DNA of 32,000 nucleotides from Candidatus Saccharimonadota bacterium (GCA_963706795.1 OY970170.1:1170001-1202000), one strand, 5' to 3'. Shown: positions 91 through 32,000, counted from the stretch's first letter. Made by a program: numbers and translations. Notes: generated from the sequence alone by a model not told the origin.

Positions 91-3000
91 CTATTCAACT
101 TCGTCAATGAATTTTTTGCGTACGTAGCCAGTTCCTTTTTGTGATCGGATTTCAACCCATTCTGAACCATTAAGACGGTCGAGGATAACGATGAGCTCGC
201 CATGTTTGAGTGGGCTGAGTGATCGTACGATCGGAGAATCTCCATCTGGCTTTGAACGAATATTGAGGTATCGAGCTGCATTGACGCGTGCCCATGTAAC
301 CTCGTAGTTGAGTTCGTGACCTTGTGCAAAGAGGTATGGATCAGTGCGGGCAATATCCGAATCCTGAAGCGTTCGGAGATAGTCGAGATAGACCCAACCA
401 TCGACCCCGTCAAATGTTACATGCCCCCAAACTCCTTGTTCCCCAATGAGTTCAACACGGCTATTGCGTGGAAGTGTCGCGAGGAGATCGCCATCCATGC
501 TTGGTGTCAAGCGAACATTGACCGAGTTTGCAGCGCTGATAAATCGTGCACCACCTTCAAATGTATAGTCTACTGGATTTGTACCATTGGTAGCAGTTGG
601 AGTATCGACTGCGTCACCATTCTTTACAACATATCCAAGTCCTGGAGCATCAACTGCATGACCAATTGGAGTCTTTGGAACTGTAGGCTTTTTTATCGGA
701 GTGGTTGGCTTAACTGTTGGCTTTGTCGGTCTAACAATTGGTTTTGTTGTACCCTTCACTGGAGTAGTTGGTGGGTATGGGGTTTTAATTGTTGGAGTTC
801 CCATGTTACCGATTGCTCCTGTTCCGGTAGTGGTAGTACCGGTACCAGTAGTAGTTGTCCCTGTTCCCGTATTTACTGTAGGAGTAGAAGGTGTTGAAGG
901 AAATCCAATGAAGATGCTTCCTCCTCCACTTCCACCACCTCCGCTTGATCCAAATGATCCGCCGCCCCCTCCACCAGATGAACCTCCATTACTTCCGCCA
1001 TTTGTGCTTGCTACTGCGAAGAGTGCGGTACCAACTGGAGTATCTGTAATGTTTCCTGCTGCATCAACTGAGTGTACAAATACGTAATAGGTATTTGTTG
1101 GATCTACACCAACAATCGCACCTGAATGACTTGTACCAACTGTTGATCCGCTCCAAATTGTTGTCGCAACAACATTTGAGCCCGTTCCTACATAAAATGT
1201 TGAAGTCGTCGTTTCGTTCGTTGTAAATGTGTAATAACCCGTTGTCACTCCTGCATTAGTAACTCCTGAGAAGCTCTGAGCACTAATTGCGGGTGCGAGT
1301 GCGTCCTGAGTAATTACCACGTTCGTTCCAGTTGATACATTACCTGCGAGGTCAGTTGCCCGAACTACAAAGGTTGTTCCTGTATTTGTAACGAGTGGGA
1401 GAGTGAGCGTATATGCTCCAGTACCACTTGCGATTGTAGAGACCATTCCTGAAGATGTCGCTGTGACTGTTGCTCCTGTCTCAGTCGTACCTGTGAGAAC
1501 GTATGTAAGTGCATTTGTAATTGCTCCCGTTGCCGAGACCGTAAAGCTTGGTGCAACCGAATCTTGAATTACCGCAATCGATCCAGTAAGGGTCGCCGAA
1601 GTGTCAGTGGCCGTTACGAGGAAATTATTTGTCACATTTGCTGTGAGTGGAAGCGTAACACTATATGCCCCCGTTCCAGATACGGTAGTCGAGGCTGATG
1701 CTGTACCGCTGACTGCAATATTTGCATTTGCCTTTGAAGTTCCTGAAATCGTAAATGTATTTGCGCTCGTCGTAATTGGTCCGACCTGCGTAATAGTGAG
1801 TGTGAGTGGAATTGGATCCTGAGTAATTACTACAGATCCCGTTCCTACATTGCCTGCAAGATCAGTTGCAGTGACCAGAAGCGTATTTGCTGCACCAATC
1901 GAGAGTGGTACAACGAGGCTAAATGCTCCTGAACCATCTGCAACTCCACCGACTACTGCGCCAGAACCTCCAGAGATTACAATGCTCGCAAAGGCTTCTG
2001 TTGTACCGCTAAGTGTTGCGGCGAGTGCACTTGTTGTATGAGCTGCAGTAGCAATTACAACCGCAGGATTGATATCGTCATGCGTAATGCTTACAGAACC
2101 GGTAGCAACATGCATTGCCTGATCGGTTGATGTCAGACTAATCGTATTGAGGCTGTTTGGAAGAAGTGGAACTACGAAGCTATAATTCCCGCCTGCAGCA
2201 CTTCCTGTAAGAGTGAGTCCACCATTTCGAGTCAGTACGAGCGATGATCCAACCTTAGTAGATCCCGTAAGCGTGATGCTATTTGACGAAGTCGCTACTG
2301 GCTGAGGACTGATGAGAAGTGTATTAGCAACCGAGTCTTCGATGACCGTAATGGCGCTCGATGCTGTATTGGTTGCTGCGTCAGTTGCTGTTACTGTGAG
2401 GATATTTGTCGTATCCTGTAGAAGCGTTGCATTCGTACTAAATGCACCTGTAGATGATGCTGTGGCTGTACCTACCGTAGATCCAGACTGGTTGGTGATT
2501 ACGATATTTGCATTCGCTTCGGTGATTCCGTCGATCTGGAATGTATTTGCATCGACGATTGCTCCGCTTGCTGTAGAGAGGATGACCGTCGGTACGATGC
2601 TATCCTGGAGTACATTCATACTTCCAGTTCCTGCATTGCCTGCATTGTCTGTCGCAGTTACGAGGAGGGTATTGAGACTATTTGCTGTGAGCGATACCAC
2701 TCCTGAGAATGTACCATCCGATGCGGCAGTAACCAAGAGAGTTGCTGCTCCACCCGTGATGCTGATATTCGCATTTGCTTCTGTTGTACCTGTAAATGCT
2801 ACTGTTGCCTGATTTGTGACCGTAGTCGCAGGAGTAACAGAAACAACGGGATTAATATTGTCCTGAGTTACCGTGAGTGTTCGAGTAGAAGTATTTCCTG
2901 CTGCATCGGTTGCAGTCACAATGATTGTATTGTGAGCATTGAGCACGAGGGCAACATTGCCAGAGAATGCTCCATTACCGAGAGCAACAACATTGTCTGT

Positions 3001-6000
3001 TGATCCTGTATTACTGATGCTTACTGAGAGACCTGCTTCGGTTGTACCTGCAATATCAAAGCTTCCAGAATTTGTTGTCTGTCCTGAGGCAGTTGAGATC
3101 GTGAGAAGGGGAGGGGTGTTATCGATCGTAATTCCTGTTGCATGAATACCTGAGATATTACTTGAGGCATCAATTGCAATTGCGTCGTAATGCCCGTCTT
3201 GAACTCCTGCTGGAATTGTGAATGTATATGGAACATCCGCGAGTGCATTTGCCTTACCAAGGAATGCCTGACCACTCAGTAGGAGCGCTGTAAGATCACC
3301 TGTTGTTGCTACTGTTGAACCACTTTGTACAAAATAGATGCTTCCATTTTCGTCGATCGAAAGACTCGTTGTACTCGTAGAACCCGTTCGAAGGATTTCG
3401 TTAGTTGCTACAACATTTGTGATTGCCGGAGCTGTGAGATCGAGTGCAGCAGCTGAGTATGTAAATGGCGTACCTGGGATGCTTGCTGTAAGGATGAGAT
3501 TGGCACCAGATGCCGTTGCTGTGACTCCACTTGCTGTAATATTTCCTGCAAGTGCTGTGACTACTGAATTGTCAGTATCAAGGGCATTACTGAGATAGTC
3601 ATAATTTGTCGCATTGACCGTAACACGGAATGTCCATTTTTTAATCGTATTTGAAGGCGTCACCGTAACAATCTGTGAAACCGGTGGTACATTGATCGCT
3701 GTGATCGTTGCAGTCTGCGTATTGATTACTGAGAGTGTGCTTACTGAGAATGCCGTTCCTGCAACATTTGCCGTAAGAATAAGCGTCGATCCTGACATGC
3801 TTGTTGTTACGGGTCCGAGTCCATCGATGGCTGTTCGGAGATTTGTGAGGGTTGTTGCGCTGTCTGTTGCAAATGATGCCTGAGCTGTGAGGCTACCATT
3901 TACTGTAAGGCTTACGGCATCACCAGGGAGGAATGTTGGTACATTCACGCTCATAACCTGTGCGACTGGTGCAACATTGTTAACTGTGGTAGTTGGCGCT
4001 ACAGTATTGCTTACTGAGAGATTTCCGAGAGTAAATGGAATTCCTGCGACTTCTGCAGTAACCGTTACTACGAGCCCGCTTGCTGTCGCGCTCACTCCTG
4101 GTTGTGCGTCGATTGCTGCTGCAAAACCACTCATTGTGAGGGCTTCTGATCCTGAGAAACTCGTTGTAACACTTCCACTGCCTACTGGGAGCGTAAGTGT
4201 GTCACCCGCAACGAGATTTCGAGGCATAGTAACGTCCATAATCTGAGCCTGAGCTGGCACATTTGGCACGATATTCGTGTTTGGAACTGCGAGAGCAATA
4301 CCAAGAGCGCTGAGCGTGAATGGAATTCCTGCAACTTCTGCAGTAACCGTAATAGTAGATGCTCCGCCATTACTTACTGCGCTCACTCCTGGAAGTGCAT
4401 CGATTGCTGCTGCAAGATTTGCGAGAGTTGTTGCTGTGTCGGTTGCAAAACCTGCAGTTACCGTCTGTGCATTTACATCAACAGAAAGCGTCTCACCAAC
4501 CACGAGGGTTCGTGGAATTGTAAATTGATCAACCTGTGCTCCGCTTGCGACATTTGGTACGAGATTTACTGGGCTGATGGATTCGCCATCGAGCTTGAGG
4601 CTTCCAGTGTATCCAACACCTGCCGTCTTTGCTGTGAGTCGTAGAGTCTTTGTAGCTCCGCTATATGAAGCACTCGCAAATGTCCCGTTATCAATGAGTC
4701 CACCAAGAAGCGTCATCGTTGTAGGAGCATCCGTTGTAAATGCCTGATTAACACTTGCGCCTGAAAGTGTCGCAGTAACCGTCTGTCCAGAATGTACATC
4801 ATACAAAAGTGTATAATCATCCACCTGAGCTACCGGAGCTACATTTGCCTGAAGTGTTGTAGGAGTGCTTGAGTTATCTATTGCAATTGTTCCGATCACG
4901 AGACTTGCACCTGTTGCAGTCGATGCAACAATTACTGTATTTGATCCACTTGCTGTTGCGCTTACGCCTGGCTGAAGGGCAATATTCGATGCAACATTTA
5001 AAATCGTAGTTGCGTTGTCTGTTGCAAACGGTGTATTGACCGTTGTACCATTCACGTCTACCGCCACAGCATCACCTGCTACAAAATCCGTAGGGAAGGT
5101 GATCGACTGACGTGCTACCGCACCTGCCGAACTCGAGACTGACTGTGTTGGAGTTACTGTATTGGTAATGACGAGATTTCCAGTTGTAAATGCCGTACCT
5201 GCATCAGCTGCAGTAATCGTAATTACTGATCCGCTCGCAGTTGCATCGAGCTGAGGGAGGCTATCAATATTGCTCGCAAGATTTGCAATTGTCGTTGTCG
5301 AATCCGCAAGATATGTCTGTGTAAAGAGAGTTCCATCAATCGTTACTCCAACACTGTCGCCATTCACGAGCGTACGAGGAAGTGTATATGTATTTGATTG
5401 AGTAACTGCGACTACTGGCGTTGATTGAGTCGATGTAATATTTCCTGGTGTTGCTCCATTTACAAAATTGATCTGCGTTGTTCCTACCTGAGCAGTCTGA
5501 CGCGTAAAGATCGCATGTGTACCGGTTCCACCTGGTGTAATAACACCATTTACTGGATCGCTAATACCATTGAGTCCTCGTAGAAGTGCTGCAATAGTAC
5601 CGATATCAGTAGATGCGATATTGATCACTGCTGCATTATTACTACAGTCATAGTCTGGAAGTGTCACTGACGAAAATGTCACATTACATGAGCCAATCGT
5701 GAGAGTTTCACCTTCGAGTGGAGCGGATACCACATTCACATCGAGTGAAGCCTTCGTTTCAGGAGTATTTGTAGTCACTGAAGTTGATGCTACGCCAGTG
5801 CTGGTTGTTACAAAATTACCAGTAGTGAACGAGTTACCTGCCGTTGCTGCTGTTACTGTGAGTGTACGAGTTCCTGTATTCATCGTTGCATCTACTGCGC
5901 CAAGAGCATCTGTAGCCGTTCCAAAGCTATTTAAAGATGTTGCGTCATCTCCAGTAAATGCACCCGTAAGACTCTGTCCTGCAATCGTCCATGTCGTCTG

Positions 6001-7695
6001 ATCACCCGAAATAATCGTATTTGGAATGATATAACTCGAGATCTGTTTTACAGGATTTGCTGGATTTTGGAGAACCGTAGGTGAGACCTGATTGATCACA
6101 TTGAGGCTCGAAATGCTAAACGAAACTCCAGGTGTCGTTGCTGTTACGGTAATAGTACGAATCCCCAGAGAAACACTCGCATCTACGTTTGCAAGTCCGT
6201 CAATCGCTGCCGTCATAGCAGTAAGCGTCGCGTTTGAGCTTGTGATATATGACTGATTTACGGCTATTCCATTGATCACGATACTCGCATTGTCGCCAGC
6301 AACGAGATTACGTGCAAAAGTGATGGTTTCGCTTTGAGATTTTGCTACAACATTGGCAACGACAGAAGTTGTTGCTACTTGTGTTTGTATAGCGAATGCA
6401 CCAAGAGTAAACGGAGTACCTGCTGCTTCTGCTACCACAGTAACAGTTTTAAGTCCTGGATTGCTCGTCGCTGTAACCCCAGGAAGTGCGTCAATAGCAC
6501 TTGCAAGAGCTGCAAGCGTCGCTGCGCTTGATCCAGAATAGCTGAGATTTACAGGTGTTCCGTTCACGCTTCCTGAGAGCGTATCACCTGCAACGAAGTC
6601 ACGAGCAAAGCTCATAACATCCTGCTGAGCCACTGCAATCACATTTGGTGCCACATGTACCACTGCTACACTATTACCCGTAACCGCAAGTGTTCCAATC
6701 GCAAAGGGTGTGCCTGGAATTGCAGACGTAATAGTAATCGCTCCTCCACTACGAGAAGCATCAACTGCAGCAAGTGAATCAATCTGATTTACAAAGGCAT
6801 CGAGTGTTGCATTTGAGCTGCCTGTATAGCTCTGCACAATCGGCGTACCCGCAACTGTGAGAGCCATTTGCTCACCGGCATCAATCGTTCGTGGAAGCGT
6901 GATTGTATTGACCTGCGCAACTGGCACAACATTTGGCTGTACGACGCTTGGATTTACGCCACTCGACTGAATAACGAGATTTGAGAGGCTGAATGGAACT
7001 CCTGCCGTCTTTGCAATAAAGCTGATTTTATTTGTCGCACCCGAATAGCTCGCATTTACAATCGTCCCCGATGTAATTTGTGAAGCAAGAGCCGTAAGAG
7101 TTGTTGTCTTGTCAGTATTAAAGTTTTGAGTCACACCCGTACCTGCAACAGTGAGTCCTACAACATCACCAGCGATAAGGTTTGCGTTGATCTGATACTC
7201 AGCCTGCTGTGCAACCGCAACAACGTTATTAACGAGCGTATTAAAGTTATTTGGTGCATCTTGTACTACGAGTGTCGGGGTAGCAAAAGGCGTACCTGGA
7301 TTAGCACTCGTAATCGTGTAGGTTCGAGTAGGAGTATCTACAGTCGAGTTTACTTCGGTAAGTGCATCAATTTTTACATTGAGAAGCCCGAGTGTTACCG
7401 TGCTCGAAGTATCGAATGCCTGTGAGACAGTCGTACCGCTGAGAGTAAATACCAAATTATCTCATGGAACAAGGTCATGAGGTACACTCACTTGCACAAT
7501 TTCTGCTCCTGCTGGAACATTAGACTGTGTAAGCGTGGCTGTAAGTGCTGGATTCGCTGCATATGCGAGTCCAGGCATCACAATCTGTGCGATGAGGAGA
7601 ACAATGGAAAGGCCTGCTACTTTCCGACGAAGGTACTGCGACATAAAAGACAGATTAAAAATGATTACTCTTTGAGTGATAGTTTGGCGTGACAT
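91..7695 (-). CDS. giant secreted/cell-surface repeat protein, 2534 aa with TGA 7462-7464 read as Gly; putative adhesin or envelope protein
   Basis: ORF-track pieces 91..7455 and 7462..7695 share a frame and are separated only by TGA. AGGAG lies 4 nt upstream of the ATG at 7695. The N-terminus has a basic region, a hydrophobic core and AYA|A (signal/anchor). Downstream come ~14 repeats of ~97 aa, 7 Ig-like repeats, an FN3-like module, Gly-rich and Thr/Pro-rich linkers, and 2 SH3b-like domains. Stop is TAG at 91-93. Confidence 0.9.
94..560 (-). other. two C-terminal SH3b-like (bacterial SH3, cell-wall binding type) domains of the giant protein
   Basis: First: ARFISAANSVNVRLTPSMDGDLLATLPRNSRVELIGEQGVWGHVTFDGVDGWVYLDYL. 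Second: ARYLNIRSKPDGDSPIVRSLSPLKHGELIVILDRLNGSEWVEIRSQKGTGYVRKKFI. Both fit the (V/L)N(V/I)R..P......(I/L)..L..G..(V/L).......(G/W)W..(V/I).....GW(V/I)...(Y/F)(L/I) pattern. Confidence 0.7.
690..1005 (-). repeat. low-complexity linkers: a Gly/Ser-rich tract followed by a Thr/Gly and Pro/Thr/Lys-rich tract
   Basis: The protein reads GGSNGGSSGGGGGGSFGSSGGGGSGGGS, then TGTGTTTTGTGTTTTGTG, then PTTPVKGTTKPIVRPTKPTVKPTTPIKKPTVPKTP. The corresponding DNA is visibly low-complexity. Confidence 0.9.
1300..3125 (-). repeat. 7 tandem Ig-like (bacterial Ig / Big-type) coding repeats of ~87 aa
   Basis: Each unit has the form DxxxPxxxxxxxxxxTNxxxxxxxGTTEAxAxxxxxxxxxxxxxxxxxGxFSxxxxLxxxxxNxxxVTATDxAGNxxTGSxxxxQD. 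Unit ends are TVTQD, NVLQD, TVIED, SITHD, VITQD, AVIQD and VITQD. Confidence 0.75.
3440..7455 (-). repeat. about 14 tandem coding repeats of ~285-291 bp (~95-100 aa) inside the giant gene, interrupted by one unique insert
   Basis: Recurring pattern: (V/A)AQ(V/I)xx(V/I)T(L/F/M)PRxLVAGDxxxVxVNGxxVxxxFxxDxATTLxxLAxAIDALPGVSAxxSGxxxTITVTAExAGxPFTLxxL. At the DNA level, the 32-mer aatggaattcctgcRacttctgcagtaaccgt occurs at 4034-4065 and 4319-4350 (31/32 identical, 285 bp apart). Confidence 0.85.
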
Positions 7696-7944
7696 GGGAC
7701 TCCTGTATTGATATCCGCTGTTGTGTTTTTATCTTGCAATAAACTTATCTCCGCTGCAAGTATTGTCAAATGACTAAAATCTTGTTTCGTATAAATAATT
7801 TATACGGAATTCATCCCTTGGGCAAAGGGATTTGATATCTTTTTTTGGCAAAACTTCCTCAAAAGCAGAAATATTCAAAAAACAACTTTTAAAAATCGTC
7901 AATTTGCACAAATTCGACGAAATATTTCTTGAAATCGCAAATAA

Positions 7945-7963
7945 ATATGTACTATGTACATAT
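7945..7963. promoter_or_regulatory. candidate LexA operator (SOS box) upstream of umuD-umuC
   Basis: Perfect 19-bp palindrome ATATGTAC-TAT-GTACATAT, ending 15 nt before the umuD ATG. The same ATATGTAC / GTACATAT arms flank the lexA upstream region at 27621-27651. Confidence 0.55.
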
Positions 7964-7978
7964 AAATAATCAAAACAT

Positions 7979-8329
7979 ATGTACAATCATCCACGTTTTG
8001 TCACAGAACGCCAAGAATGAGAGGGGAGCCTCTCTGATTATCTCGTCGAACACCCCGCAACTGCGATGTTCCATACCATGAAGGGCTCGAGTATGTGCGA
8101 TGTTGGCATATTTGAAGGCGACACTGTCGTAATTGAGAAGGGGAGAGTGCCAAAAGCAGGGGATGTTGTGCTTGCTATTGTGGATGATAGTTATGTGATT
8201 CGCATTTTTGATTTTCATGGGAACAGGCCGATGCTCAGATCTTGAAATCCCGAATATGCTTCGATTATCCCAAGCGAATCCCTCGAGATCCGCTGAGTAG
8301 CCGTCTCTCTGATGCGAAAATATCACTAA
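7979..8329 (+). CDS. umuD: UmuD-like S24 peptidase-fold protein, 116 aa, 3 in-frame TGA
   Basis: Hand translation: ...LSDYLVEHPATAMFHTMKGSSMCDVGIFEGDTVVIEKGRVPKAGDVVLAIVDDSYVIRIFDFHGNRPMLRSGNPEYASIIPSESLEIRGVAVSLMRKYH. This aligns by eye with the E. coli UmuD core (GDSM Ser motif present). TGAs are at 8018, 8243 and 8294. Stop is TAA at 8327-8329. The ORF-track entry on the opposite strand (7970..8341) is an antisense shadow. Confidence 0.8.
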
Positions 8330-8339
8330 ACTCGCTCGC

Positions 8340-9530
8340 ATGATACTTCGAACTTCGACAAAACTCTATGCACATGTCGATTGTAATTGTTTCTTTGTAT
8401 CATGCGAAATACTCCGCGATCCTTCGCTCAGGAATAAATGCGTTGTGGTCTGAGGCGACATTATCATCGCGGCATCTTACGAAGCACGTAAATATGGCAT
8501 CCGAGTCGGTACTCCAAAATGGGAAGCAGAACAAATGCTCGCAGGCAAGCTTATAATTCTACCGCCAGATCTCGGATATTATCGCAGAATTTCCGACGAG
8601 TTTCTCTGATTTTTAGGTGAAAGAAGTCTCTCAGTTGAGCCATTTTCTATTGATGAAGCCTTTTTGGATATTACATGACTTCCAGATCGTTTTACTGAAG
8701 GAGATGTCACCAAATTTACCACTCAGTTACGAGAAGAGGTCAAAAATCGCATCGGGATACCAGTATCAATCTGAGTCGCCAATACTCGCATTAAAGCAAA
8801 AATTTTCTCAGATATTCATAAACCAAATGGTCAGTTTGTGGGTCTCGATGCGAGCGACGAAGCTGAAGTTTTTACAGAGCTTCCGGTACGAGACATTCCA
8901 TTTGTGGGACGTAATACTGAGATCAAGCTTGGTAAGAGTGTTCGAACAATACTAGACTTCAAACAGTTTGGCTTTTTTGAACTTGATCGACTTATCGGTA
9001 AGAATGCAACAACTCTTTGGCTCGAGCTTCATGGTGTTGATGTCTGGCATATGGATCATGGCCGAGGCGGGCGACAGAAGAGTATTTTGAGGTCTCGATC
9101 CTTCAATCACTTCATGACAGATAACAAGCATATTCTCTGGCGATATTTCCTCGCTAATTTTGAAAATGCCTACCGTGAACTCATGGAGCTCGAATGCGAA
9201 ATTGGAGAGGTGAGTGTGCTTTTGCGCTCAAGAGAGCTCGTGAGATCCCGAGCTTCACGAATTTTTGATAGCAGCACCGCAGACAAGCACCAAATCCTCG
9301 AAACCTGCAAAGAACTCATGACAGAAGTCTTTACACCTGGAATATTCTATAGAACCACGGGGATTCTGTTTTCGGGCCTAACGATTGCTAATCCGCGCCA
9401 ACTCTCAGTATTCGATGTCGATAACACTCGATATGAACGCACAATCCGACTCGAGCAAACTCTTGCACAGGTCAATCAAAGATATGGCAAATGATCTGTG
9501 AAGCTTTGAGGAACACTTATTAGTGGATAG
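8340..9530 (+). CDS. umuC: Y-family (translesion) DNA polymerase, UmuC/DinB-like, 396 aa, 6 in-frame TGA
   Basis: Motifs YAHVDCNCFFVSCE, SIDEAFLDIT[TGA=G] and PVSI[TGA=G]VANTRIKAKIFSDIHKPNG. It is in frame with ORF-track 8838..9494. I checked every codon from 8340 to 8838 and found no TAA/TAG. It starts 11 nt after the umuD stop. The first true stop is TAG at 9528-9530. Confidence 0.88.
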
Positions 9531-9757: not shown

Positions 9758-10804
9758 ATGAAATATATCAGCGCTCTCGAGGAATTCATCACATATTTGC
9801 GACTACACCGAAATGCGAGTCCAAAGACTATCGAGCAATACGAATTACATATATGGAAGTTTTTAGAGTTCGTAGATCCAAAAACCACAGGTCATCCTGA
9901 TCTCGATCTTCCCCATCATGCTATTTTTGTAGAAACTTCGGAAGATCCTGAAAAACGAGCTAAAAAGATGCAGACAAAGATGTTTTTACGAGGATTATGT
10001 CGTCTCGAGATCGAAAACGTGAATTTAGAGGATTTAAATGAATTTCGCCTATTTTTGGCAGATAAATGACTCGCTGTGAAGTCTGCAAATGCCTATATGA
10101 TCACGTTTCGGACGTTTTTTAAGTTTTTGAAGAAAAAATGAATCCAATGTATCGATCCAACCACCATTGATCTCATTAAAGAAAAGGATCGCCAAGTGAC
10201 ATTTTTAACAACTGAGGAAGTCATGAAGCTTTTTGCGAGTGTCTGAAATGATCGAATCCAGGACAAACGTGATCTCGCAATCCTCGAATGTATCTATTCA
10301 ACTGGACTGCGTATCTCTGAACTCACAAATCTCAACCGTAACAGTATCAATCTCGATACCATGGAATTCATCGTCCGCGGTAAGGGTTCCAAAGTCCGAA
10401 TTGTCTACCTGACAGAACGCGCAAAATGAGCAATTGTAGACTATCTCGAAGCGCGAAATGATCATTTTAACCCACTCTTTATACGCCATAATTACGACGC
10501 AGAGAGTATTAATTCGGCATCTTTAGATGATGAACATGTGCGTTTAACGCGTCAGTTTATCACGGATATGGTCGGCAAGCGCGCTATGAAGGCAGGGATT
10601 CTCAAGGATGTTTCGGCTCATACGCTCAGGCACTCGTTTGCGACGACACTTTTGGAGCATGGTGCAGATATACGATCGATTCAAGAACTTCTTGGTCATT
10701 CGTCAATTACGACGACTCAGGTGTATACACATGTCACGAATCCACGCCTCAAAGAAATCCATCGAAACTTCCATTCGCCTTTACAAAAAGATGGCGACCT
10801 ATAG
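9758..10804 (+). CDS. xerC: tyrosine recombinase/integrase, XerC/XerD family, 348 aa, 4 in-frame TGA
   Basis: ORF-track pieces 9758..10069 and 10538..10804 are in the same frame. The gap translates without TAA/TAG. Motifs: [54 protein letters not shown] (catalytic R..K..HxxR..H..Y set). TGAs are at 10067, 10139, 10244 and 10427. Confidence 0.88.
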
Positions 10805-26970: not shown

Positions 26971-27615
26971 TTAATCAAAATTAAATACATCCACTACCTT
27001 TCCATTAATCTCAATCGAATCCGAATCTGAAAGCACAATCGGTGAGTGCTGTGAATCCTTTGAGTCTGGAAGGAGATAAATACTCTCCCCTTCTTGTTTT
27101 ACTTTTTTGACTGTCGCTGCGCCATTAACGATACAGAGATACGCCCCGAATGGATTATCAACCGCTTTTACACTCGAGTCTACGAGTACATAGGCTCCAT
27201 CCTCAAGCATTTTTCCGCGGATACTAAATGCGTTCATTGATGTACCTTGGAGCTTCACGCAGAAATACTTTTTTTCGTCACCATTGAGTGCACTCTTTGA
27301 GATCAGCAGCTTACCTGCGTCAGCTTCTTCTGCATAGAGAAGTGGTCGACCAGCATTAGCAACCCCAAGAATAGGAATTGGAATTGCAATCTGTGAAGCG
27401 ACAATACGATCTCCGAGGCGGATCGAACGATAGCCTCTTCCACGAGAGATATAGCCCTTGCGTTCGAGGTAGTCCAAAAATTGTACAACCGAGTGCTTGC
27501 TGCGTGCACCGAGAACTTCTTGAATTTCTTCGAGCGTTGGGGATTCACCGTGATTTTCGATGTAGCCCTTCACAATATCAAAGACCTTTTGTTGTTTAGG
27601 AGTGAGCATAGACAT
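26971..27615 (-). CDS. lexA: LexA repressor, 214 aa, no TGA
   Basis: N-terminal wHTH (LTPKQQKVFDIVKGYIENHGESPTLEEIQEVLGARSKHSVVQFLDYLERKGYI). Cleavage-site-like VANAG|RPLL. S24 catalytic Ser in QGTSM and Lys in ATVKKV. Confidence 0.9.
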   Translation of the reverse strand: MSMLTPKQQKVFDIVKGYIENHGESPTLEEIQEVLGARSKHSVVQFLDYLERKGYISRGRGYRSIRLGDRIVASQIAIPIPILGVANAGRPLLYAEEADAGKLLISKSALNGDEKKYFCVKLQGTSMNAFSIRGKMLEDGAYVLVDSSVKAVDNPFGAYLCIVNGAATVKKVKQEGESIYLLPDSKDSQHSPIVLSDSDSIEINGKVVDVFNFD

Positions 27616-31139: not shown

Positions 31140-32000
31140 TTAGAATCGAATCTCAAATACTCGTCCGCGAGAATAGATTGCAGATTTATCAGGCGACAAA
31201 ATAGTTGGCACAACTACGTCACAGCTTCGAGCTTCTGCAAGATACTCTGTACTATATGCACACGGACAGCTTGTACAGCTTGCCGCTCCAAAAATCGCAC
31301 CTGTACTCTTCGCACGATCAAAATAACATTGACCACCAACTCAAGTCTGAGTGAGTGCAAAATCATTCCCTTGATAGACATCAACAAAAGGACATCATCC
31401 ATTGGTTTTTGGTCCGGCAACGAGCGGACAGCGATCATCCGAATTAAGTACTCCATCGCCATCCGTATCGATGGACTCTGTAAAGAGAAGCGTGAGATCT
31501 GCAATAGCAGTAGACCCCTGAGAATCACGCACTGTCAGAGAAACTGGAGTTACACCTGGTCGCAAAAATGTATGTACGGGCGAAATCTCAGTCGAAAAGC
31601 TTCCATCCGAAAAATCCCATCGATAGGTATATGGTCCAACTCAACCACTCACCACACCAGTGAATTTTATATCTTGCGGAACCAAACCTGAGAGTTTATT
31701 GGCAGTTGCGGTAACTGAGAGCCCGCGCAGCTGATTTTTTGGAATAGCTGCATCATCACGAATCTCAACTGTAGCAATTGCAGTCGCTGTACGTCCAGTG
31801 TCTTTATCGCGAATAGTGAGGCGCACGAGCCAAGTTCCAGAGCCATCAAGCGCAAATGACTTGAGACAGGCGCCAGATGCAGTCATTTTTTTACCATCTT
31901 GGATTCTCACAAATTCCCAAGAGTATTCGAGATTGCCAGTCGCTTCAGTAATCGCCGAAAATGTGTAATTGGTTTCTTTTTTATCAGGGAAGGTCGTCAC
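31140..32000 (-). CDS. secreted PKD-domain / thrombospondin-type-3-repeat protein, C-terminal 286 aa (5' end lies outside the window), 3 in-frame TGA
   Basis: In frame with ORF-track 31641..32000. All codons from 31140 to 31643 were checked. PKD-like units (YSWEF..DG, PYTYRWDFSDGS) are followed by [27 protein letters not shown] (a TSP3 Ca-binding motif) and a Cys-rich tail. TGAs are at 31641, 31395 and 31341. Stop is TAA at 31140-31142. Confidence 0.75.

Follow-up and report, generated by a model that had tools for sequence, protein, structure and literature searches.

The DNA analysed here is a 32,000-nucleotide stretch, referred to as the window, from Candidatus Saccharimonadota bacterium (GCA_963706795.1 OY970170.1:1170001-1202000). 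Close to its beginning, on the minus strand, lies a giant gene whose product is a candidate fibrillar surface protein, probably tethered to the cell wall by its C-terminus. From the N-terminus onwards, the protein is composed of a putative signal peptide, thirteen copies of a ~97-residue repeat split by an insert, a series of immunoglobulin (Ig)-like modules, a low-complexity spacer and two SH3b domains (Table 1). The mature protein has a computed mass of ~248 kDa and a computed isoelectric point (pI) of 4.3.

Table 1. Position of the giant gene, of its modules and of other features in the window. HMM, hidden Markov model.
Feature	Residues	Position	Strand	Basis or remark
Whole gene		91..7695	minus	2,534 codons + stop
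Start region and Sec-type signal peptide (predicted)	1-46	7558..7695	minus	MSRQ...RRK, VAGLSIVLLIAQIVM, PGLAYA/A (slash, predicted cleavage point)
Repeats r1-r6	54-639	5779..7536	minus	HMM matches, 100-116 bits each
Sole in-frame TGA, read as Gly	codon 78	7462..7464	minus	repeat 1, LVP[G]D
Insert module	640-754	5434..5778	minus	C670 and C684
Repeats r7-r13	755-1427	3415..5433	minus	r13 divergent, 22.6 bits
Ig-like beta-sandwich with one inserted helix (predicted)	1428-1528	3112..3414	minus	formerly the "unique" module
Seven Big_6 domains	1529-2134	1294..3111	minus	PF17936
Conserved module	2135-2232	1000..1293	minus	no Pfam match for the window copy
Low-complexity spacer	2233-2385	541..999	minus	composition
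Two SH3b (SH3_3) domains	2386-2447 and 2467-2534	94..540	minus	PF08239
645-bp region upstream of the giant gene		7696-8339		
123-aa open reading frame		7970-8341	minus	
DinB-like Y-family polymerase gene		8340-9530	plus	6 TGA codons
XerC/D-type integrase-like gene		9758-10804	plus	
lexA-like gene		26971-27615	minus	
Second surface-type protein, partial		31140-32000	minus	runs off the window end

The gene and its genetic code

From the ATG at 7695, which is preceded 4 nt upstream by AGGAG, the frame is open throughout except for one TGA at codon 78. Translation with table 11 gives a shorter minus-strand open reading frame (ORF), 91..7455, of 2,454 aa. The identical protein is on record in this table-11-truncated form (P0001) on a 1,267,896-bp contig. 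In an alignment of the 12 clear copies of the repeat, the column of codon 78 is occupied by glycine in 11/11 of the other repeats. Thus, the gene itself points to UGA being read as glycine. The rest of the window gives the same picture. With table 25 in place of table 11, the residues covered by ORFs increase from 7,784 aa to 17,872 aa (ORFs of at least 150 aa, raw sums, overlapping ORFs included), and the split valS and gltX ORFs merge to full length. Other TGA codons of the window coincide with conserved glycines of two enzymes, in the motif LM[G]VTH for GluRS and in VVG[G] and CL[G] for DHFR. The code-25, Gracilibacteria context of the gene is confirmed. A first-pass annotation, made from the sequence alone, had placed a 2534-aa code-25 gene at 91-7695, and this is borne out, with a single TGA located at a glycine column of the repeats.

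TGA is scarce in the giant gene, where it accounts for 1/233 glycine codons as compared with 46/419 in the other genes of the window (Fisher p = 1.4e-8). The nrdA, nrdB, valS, rluD and lexA genes are likewise TGA-poor; small hypothetical genes use TGA for up to 40-50% of their glycines. The expression level or a requirement for accuracy may be the cause, and the avoidance of TGA as in nrdA, nrdB and valS gives a hint that the gene is expressed. A scan of the window against Rfam gave no matches, and a promoter and terminator scan of the window gave fewer sites than shuffled sequence. The 645-bp region upstream of the gene contains no convincing gene, Rfam match or strong promoter match; no called gene is on record for the 123-aa ORF that overlaps it.

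Modular architecture of the protein

The first 46 residues show, in order, a basic RRK group, a hydrophobic core and the sequence PGLAYA/A. Hydropathy peaks at residues 25-45, and no other stretch of the protein is strongly hydrophobic. The P-x-L-x-[FY]-A ending is also present in orthologues. The N-terminus looks like a cleavable Sec signal of the signal peptidase I type, and cleavage of the signal peptide would be expected. No cysteine lipobox, LPXTG-type or prepilin-type motif was found in the protein sequence. The chain closes with an SH3b domain (...KKFIDEVE) and has its only hydrophobic segment at residues 25-45, which is not the arrangement of an LPXTG-sortase substrate.

With a profile built for the repeat, 12 copies score strongly (90-116 bits) and a thirteenth is divergent; all lie between residues 54 and 1427 and measure ~97 aa. 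They are arranged as six repeats, a 115-aa insert (residues 640-754) and seven repeats. A long repetitive array from a metagenome-type source raises the question, already put in the first-pass annotation, of a chimeric frame made of collapsed or mis-joined repeats. Protein identity between the repeats is only 22-50%, and no exact DNA repeat within the gene is longer than 17 nt, which excludes assembly collapse. In addition, the same order of six repeats, insert and seven repeats recurs in independent assemblies with colinear orthologues, and an independent 10.6-kb Logan contig, ending within the gene, carries an identical 5' part of the locus. An assembly artefact is therefore extremely improbable.

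An AlphaFold2 model of r10 and r11, calculated from an alignment of 45 two-repeat units, has a predicted local distance difference test score (pLDDT) of 92.8 and a predicted template modelling score of 0.79. It contains two well-packed domains with strands continuing through the junction, and the predicted fold of each repeat is beta-beta-beta-alpha-beta-beta-beta. The best local Foldseek matches in the PDB are a sheath-tube chain of cyanophage A-1(L) (8kee_C; one repeat aligned at 2.3 A over 88 columns, probability 1.0), a portal-tail chain of cyanophage P-SCSP1u (8i4m_A), an extended-baseplate chain of phage PhiTE (9cuy_A) and a flagellin (2zbi_A). Foldseek against BFVD matched sheath, baseplate-J-like and tail-fibre models.

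Profile searches point in the same direction. Among 1.84 billion representative proteins, 817 match the repeat profile at E <= 1e-3. Ten mid-ranking matches, orthologues aside, were scanned; they include four flagellins, two FlgE hooks and one DUF3383 protein, with whole-protein E values of about 1e-15 to 1e-66. In the flagellins, the matched region starts after the N-terminal helical region (Flagellin_N) and lies before the C-terminal one (Flagellin_C) where this is detected. Flagellins P0050 (1,392 aa) and P0060 (823 aa) contain 5-8 tandem central copies of the ~97-aa domain and share with the window repeat the motif avaQvD..l..agDt..ltinG..v..F.tD.atT...La.aIna..vtA..g..lt.tA..aGt.F. In both, Pfam covers the terminal helical regions alone, so that the domain is without a curated model. 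Several giant cadherin/VCBS adhesins are also found, with 11-28 matched stretches (28 in P0029, 24 in P0037); two of these proteins (P0059 and P0177) reach the Pfam cutoff of Flagellin_IN. The window repeats do not reach this cutoff (PF07196, 22.7 bits): the best single repeat has 13.2 bits (E = 0.1), and 4/45 two-repeat units match, at best with E = 8.7e-4. For this reason they are filed as homologues of flagellin, hook and sheath outer domains and not as members of PF07196. The Pfam scan found nothing in the first ~1,500 residues of the protein, and a search of PDB sequences with the repeat profile gave superoxide dismutase matches at chance level only. Judged from the profile matches and the predicted fold, the repeat is homologous to the exposed outer domain of flagellins, hooks and phage tail sheaths.

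The insert carries C670 and C684, the only cysteines of the whole protein, which are invariant in 16 orthologue sequences. It is found at the equivalent position in every orthologue that spans the region. No match was obtained in Pfam, in PDB sequences or with the repeat profile. The possibility that it is a divergent copy of the repeat is not supported, as hhalign against the repeat profile gave 0.7% probability and aligned the first 27 columns only. A word-index search with an alignment of the insert returned no match and is uninformative, since it also missed the insert's own family.

The array is followed by a ~100-aa module, for which an AlphaFold2 model of residues 1415-1625 (20 orthologues, pLDDT 90.8) shows two successive beta-sandwiches, the first with an inserted helix. 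The top Foldseek matches of this model are the tandem Ig structures titin Z1Z2, MpIBP 4p99 and SiiE 2yn3. The module has a weak Big_13 match (E = 0.004), and related sequences occur in adhesins of Riflebacteria, Cytophagales and Enterobacteriaceae. Then come seven stretches of PF17936 Big_6 (96.9 bits, gathering cutoff 27.6). For the conserved module at residues 2135-2232, orthologues give sub-threshold matches to Ig_J_second (1.4e-4) and Pur_ac_phosph_N (4e-3), as well as weak matches to antibody V-domains; it is probably also a beta-sandwich.

The spacer starts with a glycine run (53% G), continues with a Thr/Gly segment and ends with a basic Pro/Thr/Lys segment. This basic segment has a pI of 9.85, as compared with ~4 for the rod formed by the preceding modules. 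Basic segments of this kind next to an anchor are typical of wall-spanning regions. The protein ends with two stretches of PF08239 SH3_3 (66.1 bits for the whole protein, cutoff 27; 75.3 bits, E = 4e-21, for the C-terminal 190 aa). The nearest solved SH3b chains (2kt8, 2kyb, 2kq8 and 2krs) belong to a surface protein, an enterotoxin-like protein and cell-wall hydrolases. By sequence, the pair comes closest to the modules with which surface proteins and cell-wall hydrolases of Firmicutes bind the wall.

The layout drawn in the first-pass annotation largely stands. The signal or anchor at the N-terminus, the ~1,340 aa of ~97-aa repeats, the seven Ig-like repeats, the Gly and Thr/Pro spacer (to which lysine must be added) and the two SH3b-type domains are all recovered, the Big_6 and SH3_3 domains above their Pfam cutoffs. 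The structure predictions and Foldseek searches that it had proposed gave beta-rich folds for the repeat and for the Ig-like part. Three of its descriptions are modified. The repeat, said to be unrecognised, has relatives in flagellins, hooks, tail sheaths and adhesins, and its array is split by the insert. The "unique" module is present at residues ~1428-1528, but its Ig-like sandwich model and its relatives in adhesins of other phyla argue for an Ig-like domain that other proteins share. A conserved module does occupy the position described as FN3-like, but an FN3 identity is not established, the Ig/FN3-type matches being sub-threshold and confined to orthologues.

Family and genomic context

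Full-length relatives are 33-57% identical to the window protein. Where an organism is named, these full-length orthologues are from Candidatus Gracilibacteria, Peribacteria, the Patescibacteria group or "uncultured bacterium (gcode 4)", and the best locus in a scan of GTDB representatives is 55% identical. The comparison of orthologues and of repeat copy number suggested by the first-pass annotation gives an almost constant picture: nearly all orthologues have 13 repeats (12 detected where r13 is sub-threshold) and seven Big_6 domains, and they are colinear along the rod. The genomes that carry them are deeply diverged, with GC contents of 27-60%. Along the rod, they are evenly similar to the window protein (32-50% identity), with a minimum in the anchor. 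C-termini vary, with 0, 1 or 2 SH3b domains (as detectable with a profile made from the two window copies) or a helical tail. The anchor is thus the exchangeable part of the protein. The helical tail of orthologues is often preceded by a CPxGDYSxSYYDxxC motif. In P0005-P0009, P0013, P0020 and P0023, the longer form DYCPSGDYSxSYYDxxCG is conserved after the glycine run (residue ~2241 in P0006). The window protein does not have this motif and shows IFIGFPSTPSTP at that point.

In public translations of several family members (P0014, P0018, P0024 and others), Trp amounts to 5-7% and Gly to 1.5-2%. Here TGA was read as Trp (code 4) and not as Gly (code 25), which puts W for G in many database copies and degrades domain annotation and homology searches.

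The genes around the orthologues are not conserved, and a PilT-like ATPase gene or a pilin-like gene is adjacent in some lineages only. In Peribacteria-type loci (L002, L003, L006), a PilT-like ATPase and two small secreted proteins are encoded upstream of the orthologue. In a GC-27% Gracilibacteria metagenome-assembled genome (MAG), the gene directly downstream of the orthologue codes for a 487-aa protein whose N-terminus resembles that of type IV pilins (FTLVELIIVITILAILA; L007, 13054-14517).

Within the window, a partial second surface-type protein runs off the end; judged by eye, it contains PKD-like repeats followed by Asp-rich thrombospondin-type-3-like motifs (DTDGDGVLNSDDRCP). The DinB-like polymerase and lexA-like genes together resemble an SOS-type gene set, here in a genome of small size.

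Proposed role and comparison with known systems

Our preferred interpretation, to which we give a probability of roughly 0.55, is that of a fibrillar surface protein which a Gracilibacteria-class bacterium using code 25 exports by the Sec route and anchors non-covalently in its wall. The signal peptide would be cleaved after AYA. The SH3b pair would bind peptidoglycan, most likely that of the cell itself, and the basic Pro/Thr/Lys segment together with the Gly-rich spacer would cross the wall. Beyond it, ~9 Ig-like sandwiches and then the 13 repeats with the cysteine insert would form an acidic rod carrying the N-terminus outward. This rod would probably contact other cells or surfaces. A cleavable signal, the lack of any other membrane segment, an exchangeable wall-binding module, a basic segment and an acidic beta-rich chain fit a C-terminally anchored, outward-directed fibre. 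Both the stalk and the anchor of a fibrillar adhesin are present, as 13 repeats and ~9 Ig-like domains for the former and the SH3b pair for the latter. The long stalk-like protein tethered at its C-terminus by SH3b domains, as first suggested, remains the best-supported reading.

The cell's own wall is a feasible target of the SH3b pair, since an mltG homologue in the window shows peptidoglycan to be handled by the organism, and the peptidoglycan pathway is complete in a closed Gracilibacteria genome (10.1101/595074). Signal-peptide cleavage, fibre polarity, attachment to the own wall, the rigidity and length of the rod and a role in adhesion or in the relationship with a host are inferred. 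Giant adhesins, and what was proposed for Vampirococcus (see below), offer analogies that make contact with other cells plausible.

Several observations weigh against this interpretation. The Pfam scan gave no known adhesive, lectin-like or enzymatic tip domain, and the flat conservation along the rod leaves no variable tip. No conserved operon partners were found across the orthologous loci examined. The number of domains does not vary and there is no sign of concerted evolution among the repeats, unlike in typical repeat adhesins; a fixed count of diverged domains suits a length-defined or lattice structure no less well than it does a simple adhesin. The metaproteome of one orthologue-bearing MAG includes a "VCBS" adhesion protein, but the supplement gives neither a sequence nor a contig identifier by which the entry could be matched to the family.

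This brings forward the alternative of a structural coat, that is, an S-layer-like or sheath-like array protecting or shaping the cell, with the repeats in lateral contact. The strictly conserved number and order of the domains, each position having diverged from its neighbours, would be well explained by such an array. Homologous domains are found on the exterior of polymers (flagellar filaments and tail sheaths), the codon choice resembles that of highly used genes, and an S-layer as well as large extracellular proteins were anticipated for Gracilibacteria (10.1101/595074). On the other hand, the Pfam scan detected no SLH or other known S-layer module, and ~24 small domains followed by a flexible spacer look like a fibre rather than a compact subunit. 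We regard the lattice as unlikely, albeit as a serious alternative.

The polarity could also be the reverse, the N-terminal signal serving as an anchor in the cell's own membrane and the SH3b pair at the outer end holding on to host or prey peptidoglycan. At ~20 residues, flank included, the hydrophobic region would be enough for a membrane anchor, and the lineage is thought to be host-dependent (PMC11452946). Hydrolase modules are among the nearest solved matches of the SH3b pair. Lysins that attack foreign walls use SH3b domains for targeting. However, PGLAYA/A is a canonical combination of helix-breaker and A-x-A site and is conserved in orthologues. Moreover, several orthologues keep the rod without SH3b, which would be odd if SH3b were the business end, and a basic Pro/Thr/Lys segment beside the anchor is what a wall-spanning region would show. 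Finally, the outer membrane of a Gram-negative host would bar access to its peptidoglycan. A reversed orientation seems unlikely to us, although it too is a serious alternative.

A more elaborate version of the outward fibre would make it both spacer and sensor, of fixed length and particular to Gracilibacteria-class bacteria: the count of 13 repeats and seven Big_6 domains would set its reach from the wall, the disulfide-capable insert halfway along the distal rod would be a ligand-binding module of a new kind for host recognition, and a flagellar or tail domain would have been recruited into the contact organ of an episymbiont. We consider this scenario speculative, with low odds. A released factor, or a protein of phage origin (tail-fibre-like or decoy) binding the walls of other cells, is very unlikely: the repeat fold does recur in phage sheath, baseplate and fibre proteins, an SH3b anchor is non-covalent and an integrase-like gene lies 2 kb upstream, but no phage structural genes flank the gene in the window or in orthologous loci, colinear orthologues across deeply diverged genomes are as expected for a vertically inherited cellular gene, and the Pfam scan gave no lytic or toxin domain.

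Gracilibacteria are uncultivated and host-dependent, and the wall-anchored fibre proposed here would offer a concrete target for metaproteomics, antibodies and cryo-electron tomography. Domain boundaries are now defined, and confident models are available for two module types of a lineage-restricted giant surface protein. The ~97-residue domain, largely invisible to Pfam, joins the hypervariable regions of flagellins, hooks, tail sheaths and giant adhesins, and a curated model of it would annotate hundreds of proteins. A fixed number of strongly diverged copies is unusual for repeat adhesins and hints at a length-defined or position-specific structure.

As a kind, giant modular wall-anchored fibrillar surface proteins are known. 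The present variant, which combines a Sec signal, an SH3b anchor, 13 flagellin/sheath-type domains and a two-cysteine insert splitting the array, and which is restricted to the Gracilibacteria class where organisms are named, is not described in the literature searched. An organism suited for comparison is Vampirococcus lugosii, a predatory relative in Absconditabacteria that belongs to a related code-25, small-genome lineage. Its giant proteins, of 1,392-4,163 aa, have been suggested to make up a fibrous surface and to mediate host recognition (PMC8080830). According to their description, they contain WD40, PKD, integrin, DUF11 and fibronectin domains, and homology to the window family is not reported for them.

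With the outer domains of flagellins, FlgE hooks and sheaths, the window repeat shares profile matches, a motif and the predicted fold, with partial overlap with PF07196. In these systems, the domain is inserted in a self-assembling helical core. The Pfam scan detected no Flagellin_N/C, hook or sheath core in the window protein, in which the domain is instead strung 13 times in a chain with a Sec-type secretion signal and an SH3b anchor.

The giant adhesins of Gram-negative bacteria (SiiE, MpIBP, BapA/LapF and those of the VCBS/cadherin type) have a long Ig-like rod, as here, and some contain arrays of flagellin-type repeats; it is the extender domains of SiiE and MpIBP that the model of residues 1415-1625 matches. 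Their secretion is of type I, relying on C-terminal signals and RTX repeats, and they have an N-terminal retention module and near-identical repeats of variable number. By contrast, the window protein has a Sec-type signal at the N-terminus, SH3b domains at the C-terminus and diverged repeats of fixed number, and the Pfam scan found no RTX (HemolysinCabind) match in it, which sets it apart from type I RTX adhesins such as SiiE, LapA, MpIBP and BapA. The anchor itself is organised as in SH3b surface proteins of Gram-positive bacteria, where tandem SH3_3 domains at the C-terminus follow a Pro/Thr/Lys-rich segment. The window protein differs from these in having no catalytic domain, in carrying a rod of ~2,300 residues as the passenger and in belonging to small-genome, code-25 Patescibacteria/Gracilibacteria.

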